From Escherichia coli (GTDB lineage Bacteria; Pseudomonadota; Gammaproteobacteria; Enterobacterales; Enterobacteriaceae), in assembly GCF_044324785.1 (NCBI RefSeq), contig NZ_CP172127.1: 64,000 nt of DNA. One strand, 5' to 3'. Of the stretch, positions 27,175 to 50,923 are shown piece after piece (position 1 is the stretch's first letter; each line of letters begins with the position of its first letter). A model generated the notes under the pieces. The model ran no database searches, was not told the DNA's origin, and saw nothing but the letters and a program-made list of their open reading frames with translations. The position numbers were made by a program, and so were the translations under genes.

Positions 27175-27306
27175 TTCCGCTCTCTGGATAGCCTGAAGTT
27201 GACGATTTCGGGCTATCCAGAACCGCACAGCCATTTGAGCAGGCTGATTTTCTCTGTCTGCATAACATTCGATATCCGCGCCATTACCTGTCATCATGTG
27301 ACTGCT

Positions 27307-27326
27307 CCCCGCCCTGTCGGGCGAGG
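27307..27326. repeat. Right-end subterminal hairpin of the IS (CCCCGCCC-tgtc-GGGCGAGG)
   Basis: Imperfect palindrome 12 nt past the tnpB stop codon; near-identical copy at the other end. Confidence 0.65.
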
Positions 27327-27337
27327 CTTCCCACTTC

Positions 27338-28507
27338 TTAAGCCGCAACCGTCTGTGTGACGGATTTACGCTGGCCTCCATGGGCAGAAACGACGAGTCC
27401 CGCCGCTTGTAATTCCAGTATGCCCTTGCGTTTGATGTTGAGCGCCGCGTTGATATCGCGGTCATGTTCAACTCCACACTCTGGACACTGCCAGATGCGC
27501 TTATGTAATGGCATCTCCGACATTTTGTGACCGCAGCAGTGGCAGGTCTTCGAACTGGCGAACCATTGATCCAGTTTCACCAGATGCACACCTTTCTCTG
27601 TTGCTTTGTATTCCAGTTTTGTGATGAATCCAGACCATCCAGCATCGCCTATCGCACGAGCCAGATGGTGATTTTTCATCATATTTGCCGTTTTCAATGT
27701 CTCGACAATTACCGCTTGGTTTTCGTCAACAATTGCGCGAGATAACTTGTGCTGGAAATCGGCACGGGCACTAGCTACCCGTTCGTGAACGGCTGCAAGT
27801 TGTATTCTGGCTTTGCGCCTGTTTGCGCTCCCTTTTTTCTTACGGGACAGTGCTTTCTGCTTCCGGCGCAGGTTGCGACTTGCATTGATTAGGTGGCGGG
27901 GACTGGCAATTTTATTGCCGTCCGATTTGATGACAAAATGCGCCAGCCCCATATCCAGCCCTGTCACATTTGATATCAGTGCGGGCTTTGCCGGCGCTTC
28001 CATCCCGTCGTCACAGAGTAACGACGCGTAGTATTTCCCGGTTGCGCTGCGGCTCAACGTGATACTTTTCAGCATTCCCGTAATTTCACGATGTAAACGC
28101 GCTTCAATCGGCAAGATTTTCGGTATTTTTATCGCACCATCAAGGACTTTTATGCCAACACAATGATAGCTCGATTGTCTGCCGTGTTTACTTTTAAAGG
28201 TTGGTTTACCTGCTTTCAGTTTCGGATTGAAAAAGTTAGAAAAAGCCACGTCGAGGTTAATTACCGCCTGCTGCAACGCAATAGAATCATATTCTTTAAG
28301 CCATCCATACCGGCGGGATTTCTTCGCCACTGCAAGCAGTGGTTTGAGGTCTTTACGCGGGTTTAAATTTACGCGGTGCCGCTGGTAAGAATGTTTCTTG
28401 ATATGCAGAGCTTTGTTGTACGCAAAACGCACTGCACCGAACTGGGCGTTGATAAATTCAGCCTGTTCTGGTGTCGGGTAGATGCGTACTTTTGTTGCTC
28501 TTAACAT
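27338..28507 (-). CDS. tnpB: TnpB (IS605 OrfB family; RuvC-like RNA-guided endonuclease)
   Basis: 389-aa ORF; RuvC-I GLDMG, RuvC-II E in VIVETL, zinc finger CHCCGH...CPECG, RuvC-III HDRDINAALNI. Confidence 0.9.
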   Translation of the reverse strand: MLRATKVRIYPTPEQAEFINAQFGAVRFAYNKALHIKKHSYQRHRVNLNPRKDLKPLLAVAKKSRRYGWLKEYDSIALQQAVINLDVAFSNFFNPKLKAGKPTFKSKHGRQSSYHCVGIKVLDGAIKIPKILPIEARLHREITGMLKSITLSRSATGKYYASLLCDDGMEAPAKPALISNVTGLDMGLAHFVIKSDGNKIASPRHLINASRNLRRKQKALSRKKKGSANRRKARIQLAAVHERVASARADFQHKLSRAIVDENQAVIVETLKTANMMKNHHLARAIGDAGWSGFITKLEYKATEKGVHLVKLDQWFASSKTCHCCGHKMSEMPLHKRIWQCPECGVEHDRDINAALNIKRKGILELQAAGLVVSAHGGQRKSVTQTVAA

Positions 28508-28563
28508 AATCAGCGCTCATTGATATAATGCTTTTATTTTAACACTTTAGGTGGATATATCAA

Positions 28564-28989
28564 TTGAGTAATCATGATGATTTACTGGCGGGATTTCTCC
28601 GCAAACGACACAGTGTCAGTAAGCTGGTTGTGCACCTTATTTTTACGACAAAGTATCGACGCAAACTATTCGACAGTCAGATGATCGCTCAGTTGCGTGA
28701 GGCTTTTGGCTCCGCTGCGGCAAAGCTTGAATGCGAAATTATTGAGATGGACGGGGAGCCAGACCATGTACACCTGCTGGTTGCCTACCCGCCAAAACTG
28801 GCGGTCAGTGTGATGGTCAATAATTTAAAATCGGTATCATCACGTTTGCTACGCCAGCAGAACGCGCATTTACGTATGCAGAGTAAAACGGGGCTTTTGT
28901 GGTCGAGATCGTACTTTGTCTGTAGCACCGGAGAGGCAACGATTGAAACGCTCAGAGCCTACGTTCAGAGTCAGTCAACACCTGATTGA
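28564..28989 (+). CDS. tnpA: IS200-type Y1 (HuH) transposase TnpA
   Basis: 141-aa ORF; TTKYRR block, HuH motif HVHLLV, C-terminal catalytic Tyr (RAYVQSQ); only in-frame start is TTG at 28564. Confidence 0.85.
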   Translation: MSNHDDLLAGFLRKRHSVSKLVVHLIFTTKYRRKLFDSQMIAQLREAFGSAAAKLECEIIEMDGEPDHVHLLVAYPPKLAVSVMVNNLKSVSSRLLRQQNAHLRMQSKTGLLWSRSYFVCSTGEATIETLRAYVQSQSTPD

Positions 28990-29022
28990 TCTTTAAAGCC
29001 CTGCGGGCTTTTCGCCTTATAT

Positions 29023-29044
29023 CCCCGCCCGCATTGGGCGAGGG
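29023..29044. repeat. Left-end subterminal hairpin of the IS (CCCCGCCC-gcatt-GGGCGAGGG)
   Basis: Near-identical to hairpin at 27307-27326; lies just beyond the tnpA terminator-like hairpin (28994-29011). Confidence 0.65.
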
Positions 29045-29118
29045 TTTACGGCGTTTTTCGCTAAGCAATGACTACCCTGTTTCGCTTGCATCTCCGGTGA
29101 GTTTTGCCACCCTTATAA

Positions 29119-34278: not shown

Positions 34279-34620
34279 ATGATGAAAAAAAGTATTCTGG
34301 CGTTTCTGTTACTCACCAGTTCTGCAGCGGCGCTGGCTGCACCGCAGGTGATTACCGTCAGCCGTTTTGAAGTGGGTAAAGACAAATGGGCGTTTAATCG
34401 CGAAGAGGTGATGCTGACTTGCCGACCGGGTAATGCTTTGTATGTCATTAACCCAAGTACCCTCGTGCAGTATCCGTTAAACGATATTGCACAAAAGGAA
34501 GTCGCCAGCGGGAAGACTAAAGCCCAGCCCATTTCGGTGATTCAGATTGATGATCCTAACAATCCCGGCGAAAAAATGAGTCTGGCACCGTTTATAGAGC
34601 GAGCTGAAAAACTCTGTTAA
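34279..34620 (+). CDS. yebY: DUF2511 periplasmic protein YebY
   Basis: 113-aa ORF with signal peptide; third gene of yobA-yebZ-yebY cluster. Confidence 0.85.
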
Positions 34621-34650
34621 TTACCTAAAATAGCCTTTTGATTTCCAATA

Positions 34651-34690
34651 AAAAACCGCCTCAGCTCTTTCACCAGAACGGGCGGTTTTT
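34651..34690. terminator. Bidirectional rho-independent terminator (yebY and probably RyeA)
   Basis: A5-ccgcc...ggcgg-T5: hairpin flanked by A-run and T-run. Confidence 0.75.
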
Positions 34691-34777
34691 AACATTTAAG
34701 CTGATGACCACCGCGCTTTTTATTGACCATTTTGCACGCAAACTGGAAAACCTGGCGTCGTCATCTATTCTTAAAGG

Positions 34778-34880
34778 GCAAGGCAACTAAGCCTGCATTA
34801 ATGCCAACTTTTAGCGCACGGCTCTCTCCCAAGAGCCATTTCCCTGGACCGAATACAGGAATCGTGTTCGGTCTCTTTTT
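34778..34880 (+). ncRNA. sdsR: SdsR (RyeB) sigma-S-dependent small RNA
   Basis: Sequence gcaaggcaactaagcctgcattaatgcc...gaccgaatacagg-aatcg-tgttcggtc-TCTTTTT recognised as SdsR; sigma-S-like -10 CTATTCTTAA just upstream; terminator hairpin plus U-run at 3' end. Confidence 0.85.
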
Positions 34881-35014
34881 ATCTGTTAAAAGCCAGAAGC
34901 ATTCCCTTCGCTGACTTTATAGTCAACCATAACACACACTCTACTGTCTGAGTCCAGCGTTTTTTAACATTCTTGTTAAGATTATGTGATCTTTAGCGCG
35001 GGAGGAAAATATTG

Positions 35015-35671
35015 ATGAAACAGCCTGCGCCCGTTTATCAGAGAATTGCGGGTCATCAATGGCGACATATCTGGCTTTCAGGCGATATACACGGTTGTCT
35101 TGAGCAGTTGCGCCGCAAATTATGGCATTGTCGTTTTGATCCGTGGCGAGATTTACTTATCTCAGTGGGAGATGTTATCGATCGTGGGCCGCAAAGTTTA
35201 CGTTGTCTGCAGTTACTGGAACAACATTGGGTTTGTGCGGTAAGAGGCAATCATGAACAGATGGCGATGGATGCGCTGACATCTCAGCAGATGTCTTTGT
35301 GGTTGATGAATGGCGGCGACTGGTTTATTGCGCTGGCAGATAATCAACAGAAACAAGCGAAAACGGCGCTGGAAAAATGTCAGCATTTGCCCTTTATTCT
35401 TGAAGTACACAGTCGCACCGGCAAACATGTTATTGCTCATGCCGATTATCCAGATGATGTTTATGAATGGCAAAAGGACGTTGATTTGCATCAGGTCTTG
35501 TGGAGCCGCTCGCGATTAGGTGAACGCCCAAAAGGGCAGGGAATTAAAGGTGCTGATCATTTCTGGTTTGGTCATACACCGTTGCGACATCGCGTGGATA
35601 TTGGCAACCTGCATTATATTGATACCGGTGCTGTCTTTGGGGGCGAACTGACTCTTGTGCAATTGCAATAA
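35015..35671 (+). CDS. pphA: Serine/threonine protein phosphatase 1 (PPP family)
   Basis: 218-aa ORF; metallophosphatase motifs GDIHG, GDVIDRG, GNHE; GGAGG SD 9 nt upstream. Confidence 0.92.
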   Translation: MKQPAPVYQRIAGHQWRHIWLSGDIHGCLEQLRRKLWHCRFDPWRDLLISVGDVIDRGPQSLRCLQLLEQHWVCAVRGNHEQMAMDALTSQQMSLWLMNGGDWFIALADNQQKQAKTALEKCQHLPFILEVHSRTGKHVIAHADYPDDVYEWQKDVDLHQVLWSRSRLGERPKGQGIKGADHFWFGHTPLRHRVDIGNLHYIDTGAVFGGELTLVQLQ

Positions 35672-49723: not shown

Positions 49724-50392
49724 TCCTTCCTCAATCTTGAGTAACCCCGTCGTTGAAGGGTTACTCAATTCATCCTGATTATACGCACTGCCATGGTGCA
49801 ACTGCTTCAAATTAAAACTCTGGTCTGACTTCAAATAATTATCATATTATTTATTTGCGTAACGGGATATCAGAAAAAGATATTTAGCCCATTAATTTAT
49901 TAGGATGTTTACATCGGATTTGTGATTAAGTGTGGTATTATTTATTAGCGAAACGTTTCTCTCTTGATTTTTTTGCGCATTCATCAATTTTTCTTATTTT
50001 AAATTTACAATACCTTTGGCGATTGACTTCTCTTTGGGGTGATTGATAGCCGTTAACTGACTGTTTTATGAGAAAAAGTGATATAACTTTTTATTCATTG
50101 CATAGCAGAAAATGTGATATTGCACGCACTATGTAATAACTTCTCCCATTGGCCTGGAACAACTGAACTTATTGAACTATGTTAGAAAATACGTCAGTTT
50201 AAGTATCTGCCTGAACTGGCAAGGTTAAGCACAATGATATATCGGCGCGTATTCCGTTGCATAAGTGTGCAAAAAAAGTGGAAGACGTATCGAGATTTGT
50301 GCGTCTGATCGAGACATGTTTAAAAATGGCTTGCCATAATTAACGTTGTATGTGATAACAGATTTCGGGTTAAACGAGGTACAGTTCTGTTT

Positions 50393-50536
50393 ATGTGTGG
50401 CATTTTCAGTAAAGAAGTCCTGAGTAAACACGTTGACGTTGAATACCGCTTCTCTGCCGAGCCTTATATTGGTGCCTCATGCAGTAATGTGTCAGTTTTA
50501 TCTATGTTATGCCTGCGGGCGAAGAAAACAATCTAA
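50393..50536 (+). CDS. yobF: Small protein YobF (47 aa)
   Basis: ATG..TAA encoding [47 protein letters not shown], 12 nt upstream of cspC; below ORF-track cutoff. Confidence 0.8.
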
Positions 50537-50548
50537 GGAATTTTTCAA

Positions 50549-50758
50549 ATGGCAAAGATTAAAGGTCAGGTTAAGTGGTTCAACGAGTCTAAAGGTTTTG
50601 GCTTCATTACTCCGGCTGATGGCAGCAAAGACGTGTTCGTACACTTCTCTGCTATCCAGGGTAATGGTTTCAAAACTCTGGCTGAAGGTCAGAACGTTGA
50701 GTTCGAAATTCAGGACGGTCAGAAAGGTCCGGCAGCTGTTAACGTAACAGCTATCTGA
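50549..50758 (+). CDS. cspC: Cold-shock-domain protein CspC
   Basis: 69-aa ORF; RNP motifs KGFGFI and VFVHF. Confidence 0.96.
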
Positions 50759-50803
50759 TCGAATCCACTGATCTGAAGTGTGAATACGCTTCAATCTCGC
50801 TAT

Positions 50804-50830
50804 AAAGCCTCGTCGAATGCGAGGCTTTTT
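50804..50830 (+). terminator. Rho-independent terminator after cspC
   Basis: aaagcctcg-tcgaat-gcgaggcttt hairpin followed by T-run. Confidence 0.8.
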
Positions 50831-50923
50831 ACTTTGCTTTCTCTTCGCTCCAGTCGTTCGGATATTTGCCCGCCGCGTGATTCGCGTTACACTTGCGGCC
50901 TTTAGTATCCTGCCGGAGTTGTC

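Follow-up and report, generated by a model that had tools for sequence, protein, structure and literature searches.

The 394-bp spacer between yebY and pphA in the Escherichia coli DNA analysed here almost certainly encodes the convergent, fully overlapping small RNA pair of E. coli, with SdsR (RyeB) on the plus strand and RyeA (SraC) on the minus strand. This is a known locus of an ordinary kind; an earlier note, made by a model from the sequence of the window (the whole 64,000-nucleotide stretch, to which all coordinates refer), had called it correctly, and we claim no discovery. The spacer has the length given in that note, extending in both the ORF list and the sequence from the yebY stop at 34620 to the pphA ATG at 35015. 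It is preceded by the yebY coding sequence (34279–34620, plus strand), which is in the ORF list, is annotated in E. coli MEI003 and in K-12 and is the conserved upstream neighbour of sdsR, and it is followed by pphA, encoding phosphoprotein phosphatase 1 (35015–35671, plus strand; ORF list and annotation). The window is E. coli chromosome with flanks 98–99% identical to K-12, and a 421-base segment around the spacer, which matches strain MEI003 at 100% identity, was found in 5425 of 5426 complete E. coli genomes.

When the entire window was searched against Rfam 15 at the gathering threshold, the check which the earlier note had proposed, four matches resulted, two of them inside the spacer, where both families lie on the predicted strands at 3 to 5 times their gathering scores. 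SdsR_RyeB (RF00111) matches 34781–34880 on the plus strand over model positions 1–100 of 100 (114.4 bits versus a gathering score of 38, E 1.8e-21), and SraC_RyeA (RF00101) matches 34884–34740 on the minus strand over model positions 1–145 of 145 (175.1 bits versus 37). In the RefSeq annotation of K-12 MG1655, ryeA (b4432, 1923066–1923337) and sdsR (b4433, 1923104–1923207) lie between pphA and yebY, and we aligned the spacer of that genome to the window using the start of pphA and the stop of yebY as anchors. The K-12 sdsR annotation then maps to 34777–34880 on the plus strand, where SdsR is 100% identical to the experimentally characterized K-12 gene, with the same σS-type −10, the same terminator and the same place downstream of yebY, so that the two differ only in strain background. 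RyeA of the window shares with K-12 RyeA its promoter hexamer, 5′ end, terminator and complete overlap of sdsR; it departs from it by four substitutions (34665, 34698, 34713 and 34904) and by an A/T run (about 34651–34656) that is one base shorter, which leaves a U-tail of 6 rather than 7 U and so makes the RNA 1 nt shorter. All five differences fall in RyeA-only sequence, outside the overlap with SdsR.

Other features of the window lie away from this spacer. Relative to K-12, the window carries a 1763-bp insertion between yebE and ptrB (27298–29060), an IS200/IS605-family element that encodes the RNA-guided endonuclease TnpB (389 aa; 27338–28507, minus strand) and, divergently, the Y1 transposase TnpA (141 aa; 28564–28989, plus strand). 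An Rfam ‘cspA thermoregulator’ match (50373–50833, plus strand; 139.7 bits) lies on the paralogous yobF–cspC transcript, not on cspA, and much of its score is Csp protein-coding homology, since the model includes coding sequence. A match to the ES036 (CssrF) small RNA occurs at 1714–1755 on the minus strand (47.7 bits versus a gathering score of 37.6).

The ends and the fold of SdsR agree closely with what has been published. By primer extension, sdsR starts at window position 34778, 1 nt further downstream than had been annotated earlier (Choi 2019; PMC6610125); this is the G of GCAAGGCAAC, in agreement with the RACE primer of the same study, and the 3′ ends reported there, at +100 to +102, are consistent with an RNA of about 102–104 nt. 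The plus-strand interval 34778–34880 named in the earlier note is thus borne out by the Rfam match, the K-12 map and the published start, and it lies directly downstream of yebY (which ends at 34620), as also stated for sdsR by Frohlich 2012 (PMC3333887). The RNA folds into three stem-loops (minimum free energy −34.8 kcal/mol, z −4.05): stem-loop 1 at 34778–34796, stem-loop 2 at 34820–34837 and a final Rho-independent terminator whose stem (34846–34874) is followed by CTTTTT, with the U-tract at 34875–34880. Consensus scan and folding both recover this terminator, so SdsR does have a terminator of its own, as had been claimed.

To place the pair among its relatives, an exact-pattern scan of one genome per species listed at least 120 loci, spanning the Enterobacteriaceae, Yersiniaceae, Pectobacteriaceae, Hafniaceae and Erwiniaceae; 24 SdsR bases were fixed by the search pattern, and the alignment comprises the 109 listed loci that had enough flanking sequence. 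Across these 109 loci almost every column of the SdsR body shows at least 95% identity, also outside the 24 pattern-fixed bases, and the sdsR −10 region and −35 block are conserved as well, while the RyeA-only sequence on either side is poorly conserved, the terminator arms excepted. This pattern agrees with that of Frohlich et al. (PMC3333887), for whom SdsR is the conserved product and sraC/ryeA and its promoter vary. The terminator helix (helix 3) is paired in 100% of cells over 75 distinct SdsR sequences, with compensatory double changes at three pairs; helix 2 never varies, but its arms are fixed by the pattern and it is uninformative either way; and the 68% pairing of helix 1 in the alignment reflects a misaligned variable 5′ end and is not evidence against that helix. 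Within the species, SdsR is at least 99% identical in 5208 E. coli genomes, and real breaks in the sdsR promoter or 5′ region occur in just two of 5425: in E. coli FDAARGOS_944 (NZ_CP065613.1) an IS1A interrupts SdsR behind its ninth nucleotide (34786/34787 of the window), and in E. coli 2017-03-3CC sdsR is broken at about 34793.

The genomic setting is conserved on one side of sdsR. In nearly all of the 120 listed species loci yebY lies upstream, whereas on the downstream side, among those listed, only Escherichia and some Citrobacter have pphA as the immediate neighbour. In Yersinia artesiana, Y. proxima and Y. pekkanenii, sdsR adjoins the 3′ end of yebY on the opposite strand, such that the two genes are convergent, an arrangement that looks like a local inversion of the small RNA gene; in five further Yersinia species yebY and sdsR point the same way, as is usual.

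The sdsR promoter is of the σS type. Its −10 element, CTATTCTTAA at 34765–34774 on the plus strand, was read from the sequence and, relative to the start at 34778, can be written C(−13)TATTCTTAA, with the C at −13 (34765), TATTCT at −12 to −7 (34766–34771) and TAA at −6 to −4. Among the 109 listed species loci the bases C, T, A, C, T, T and A of this region, C−13 included, are at least 95% conserved, as are the TGG and AA of the −35 box CTGGAA (34743–34748), which lies 17 bp upstream of the −10. A conserved C−13 is regarded as a hallmark of σS selectivity (Frohlich 2012; PMC3333887), and changing TATTCT to CTCGAG in an sdsR promoter mutant abolished SdsR (Choi 2019; PMC6610125). The earlier note had spoken of a σS-like extended −10; the σS-type element stands, with its C(−13) and TAA discriminator, but it is not ‘extended’ in the TGn sense, the TGn belonging instead to the ryeA promoter. 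A generic σ70 consensus scan of 34500–35100 flagged neither the sdsR nor the ryeA promoter, as expected where −35 boxes are weak and the promoters are of the σS and extended −10 types, and its sole site, inside the 3′ end of yebY and at chance level, was dropped. It is published mutagenesis, together with conservation, that supports both promoter assignments.

The ORF list contains a 63-codon frame (34723–34914, plus strand) that opens with TTG and runs across SdsR, and it could be argued that this frame, or another small ORF of the spacer, encodes a small protein and that the conservation reflects coding. We regard this as vanishingly improbable. The frame exists in E. coli, and among the genome rows listed, in which PGAP otherwise annotates nothing at the region, a single one (H109) bears a ‘hypothetical protein’ there; yet the start codon is retained in only 4 of the 109 listed loci and the frame is intact in two (the window itself and E. 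coli locus L021), other genera having premature stops between codons 10 and 30 despite near-invariant nucleotides. Nor is there any wobble pattern, the identity within the SdsR part being 0.945, 0.947 and 0.913 at the three codon positions, which are in effect equally conserved. An NCBIfam search with the 63-aa ORF gave no match, and no Shine–Dalgarno sequence was seen upstream of its TTG. A 50-aa ORF on the plus strand and a 38-aa ORF on the minus strand were likewise rejected as coding, being intact in just 7 and 4 of the 109 listed loci. The ORF had already been dismissed as non-coding from the sequence of the window, and its loss in 107 of 109 listed species loci upholds that judgement.

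On the opposite strand, RyeA is a 271-nt σ70 antisense RNA (34918–34648) that covers all of SdsR, as indicated by the Rfam match and by ryeA of K-12 at the homologous position, in keeping with the antisense partner expected in the earlier note. Its promoter has a TGn extended −10, TGTTATGGT, at 34934–34926, with the hexamer TATGGT at 34931–34926, 7 nt upstream of the 5′ end at 34918, a position given by the mapped K-12 annotation and also by Choi 2019 (PMC6610125). The primers for the ryeA promoter mutant in that study changed TATGGT to CTCGAG, and the promoter mutation abolished RyeA. From here the minus-strand layout, as read from the sequence, would carry transcription through sdsR, completely overlapped, to the terminator at 34690–34651. 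With an A-run on one side and a T-run on the other, this hairpin is a bidirectional intrinsic terminator that stops plus-strand yebY as well as minus-strand RyeA, and it folds on both strands (−15.6 kcal/mol, z −4.1, on the plus strand; −20.0 kcal/mol, z −3.9, on the minus strand). That RyeA stops here, as had been proposed, is supported by the folding, by the annotated 3′ end at 34648 and by published data for an RNA of about 270 nt, whose 3′-RACE ends at +261 to +270 lie in the U-tail of the shared terminator and whose termination there is supported in vitro (Choi 2019; PMC6610125). The stem arms are 70–90% conserved across species in the 109 listed loci aligned; the hairpin is absent from the output of a simple terminator scan on account of its long loop. 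For SdsR and RyeA alike, the sequences, K-12 identity, promoters, terminators, structure and conservation come directly from the present analysis.

Definitions of the RyeA 5′ end differ by 34 nt, the older and shorter Rfam model starting at 34884 and RefSeq and Choi 2019 at 34918. Minor 5′-RACE ends at +33 and +36 have been reported (Choi 2019; PMC6610125), and these coincide with the edge of the SdsR duplex, which suggests that the shorter RyeA starting at 34884 is a processing product. A second ryeA promoter, TTGACT-17-AATGCT (34926–34898, minus strand), was considered as an explanation of the Rfam start and rejected; the ends at +33 and +36, which lie 12 to 15 nt past AATGCT and at the duplex edge, are more likely to be processing sites. 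Across the species, a TGnTAnnnT motif in antisense orientation within 110 nt downstream of SdsR occurs in 41 of 115 listed loci versus 16% in shuffled sequence, usually 70–100 nt from SdsR as compared with 54 nt in E. coli, and in Salmonella, and by report in Shigella, the ryeA promoter lies about 35–45 nt further out than in E. coli.

SdsR is unchanged here, as are the two −10 boxes and the two terminators, and the mechanism worked out in K-12 and Salmonella would therefore be expected to apply; those experiments supply, for this strain, the timing of expression, the binding of Hfq, the targets, the decay by RNase III and the read-through into pphA. On entry to stationary phase sdsR would be transcribed from its σS promoter and end at its own intrinsic terminator; SdsR would then bind Hfq and, through its 5′ part, base-pair in trans with mRNAs whose expression is thereby lowered, the reported targets being tolC, yhcB and mutS in E. 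coli and ompD in Salmonella. During growth, RyeA would be made from its σ70 extended −10 promoter, which lies 38 nt past the 3′ end of SdsR, run antisense through all of sdsR and its promoter, stop at the terminator common to yebY, and hold SdsR down in two ways, by duplex decay and by transcriptional interference. Part of the transcription from the sdsR promoter would also pass the SdsR terminator to yield pphA mRNA.

The published basis for these steps is substantial. EσS transcribes sdsR and Eσ70 transcribes ryeA in vitro; ryeA transcription interferes with the sdsR promoter, and sdsR and pphA are co-transcribed, pphA mRNA arising by read-through of the SdsR terminator (Choi 2019; PMC6610125); the two RNAs hasten one another's decay, in which RNase III is implicated (Choi 2019, PMC6610125; PMC3333887). 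SdsR is σS dependent and Hfq associated, represses ompD through RNase E, and also exists as an RNase E-dependent processed form without the first 30 nt (Frohlich 2012; PMC3333887). It reduces tolC and yhcB expression, while mutS has been questioned as a primary target (Choi 2019; PMC6610125). Hfq binding and repression of tolC, yhcB and ompD are carried over to this strain from that literature on the strength of the 100% identity of SdsR to its K-12 counterpart.

The SdsR terminator also harbours a prophage attachment core (attB; 34850–34875), which is delimited by the overlap of the attL and attR junctions in E. coli 2013C-3252 and is unoccupied in the window. An attL junction of a lambdoid prophage is found at this site in 228 of 5426 complete E. 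coli genomes (about 4%), including O26:H11 str. 11368 and O103 strains, and we aligned both junctions in one lysogen, 2013C-3252 (NZ_CP027442.1, about 979,300–1,065,000). There sdsR and pphA are separated by a Rac-like lambdoid prophage that carries int, xis, ralR, recT, recE, kilR and nleG7, is interrupted in turn by a Mu-like prophage and has its integrase gene adjoining sdsR. The crossover core, from 34850 to about 34875, is within the SdsR terminator, such that attL restores an intact SdsR with a phage-borne 3′ end while attR retains the ryeA promoter and pphA; RyeA is left with only about 30 nt of complementarity, and pphA is moved about 85 kb from the sdsR promoter. Some 237 E. coli genomes with less than 80% coverage of the spacer had at first been taken to mark an IS insertion hot spot; the break is the prophage attachment site. 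Queries with 34630–34770, 34725–34830, 34778–34880 and 34875–35020 looked intact because the duplication of the att site masks the break, which was exposed only by 34835–34935, a query with two places in about 236 E. coli genomes. In E. coli 17MR471 (NZ_CP051158.1) a different break, at about 34883 and just after the SdsR terminator, likewise falls in two places in the record and may represent another kind of insertion at this hot spot.

A precedent exists in Salmonella DT104, where, by the accounts of Balbontin 2008 given in PMC7380047 and PMC3333887, PhiW104 uses a 23-bp att site in ryeB. As far as those accounts go, the two cases are alike in that the att core occupies the last 23–26 bp of SdsR and integration rebuilds SdsR while cutting RyeA from its promoter. 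They differ in that the site in the window is empty and the E. coli occupant examined here is the Rac-like lambdoid prophage with recET, ralR, kilR and nleG7 rather than PhiW104.

With the SdsR terminator doubling as a prophage att core and the hairpin at 34651–34690 serving as the yebY terminator, one might ask whether the strong conservation is owed to such roles of the DNA and not to an RNA regulator. We consider this highly improbable, given that the conservation spans the whole 100-nt SdsR together with its −10 and −35 boxes, far beyond the 26-bp att core, that compensatory changes maintain the pairing of an RNA helix, and that prophage integration restores an intact SdsR; the direct published evidence for the RNA and its targets is moreover abundant.

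The att site bears more directly on another reading, in which the locus is primarily an RNA–RNA toxin–antitoxin system where SdsR, the toxin, kills via repression of yhcB and RyeA is the antitoxin needed against it. The pair is listed in toxin–antitoxin databases, and RyeA does lower SdsR by duplex decay and transcriptional interference. In the work of Choi and colleagues, SdsR toxicity was reportedly shown by ectopic over-expression of SdsR. The ‘toxin–antitoxin’ label stems from that one laboratory (Choi et al.), which attributes the toxicity to yhcB repression, and in its hands a ryeA promoter mutant was nevertheless viable, with few genes changed (Choi 2019; PMC6610125). The prophage, in 228 of 5426 genomes, parts the ryeA promoter from nearly all SdsR-complementary sequence and leaves SdsR intact, on the evidence of the junctions aligned in one lysogen; the same severing of RyeA is reported for Salmonella DT104 in the sources named above, and RyeA would thus be dispensable in nature. 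The RyeA promoter is, moreover, poorly conserved where SdsR is near-invariant. The severed RyeA of lysogens and the viable promoter mutant argue against an obligatory antitoxin role, and since lysogens keep SdsR while RyeA is severed we treat the toxin–antitoxin reading as secondary and unlikely to describe the primary function.

Comparison with type I toxin–antitoxin systems (hok/sok) and with small RNA sponges (SroC–GcvB) shows what the locus does share with them, namely an antisense or decoy RNA that titrates and destabilizes a second RNA. The difference is that SdsR and RyeA are both non-coding and lie on opposite strands of the same DNA, and that the ‘toxin’ SdsR is an ordinary Hfq-dependent regulator, with no toxic peptide encoded.

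The value of the result is mainly one of quality control, in that a reader of raw sequence placed a small RNA pair, a promoter and both terminators within a few bases, and the window itself adds nothing to existing knowledge of SdsR, a conserved σS-dependent small RNA of enterobacteria tied to porin control, TolC-dependent efflux and stress-induced mutagenesis. A by-product of mild use is the count of lysogens with a severed RyeA, which bears on the ‘toxin–antitoxin’ label. If the pattern in 2013C-3252 is general, a proposition to which we would give roughly an even chance, such lysogens would be natural ryeA knock-outs, RyeA would be no obligatory antitoxin, and prophage integration in E. coli would rewire how σS controls SdsR and pphA, as has been described in Salmonella DT104.
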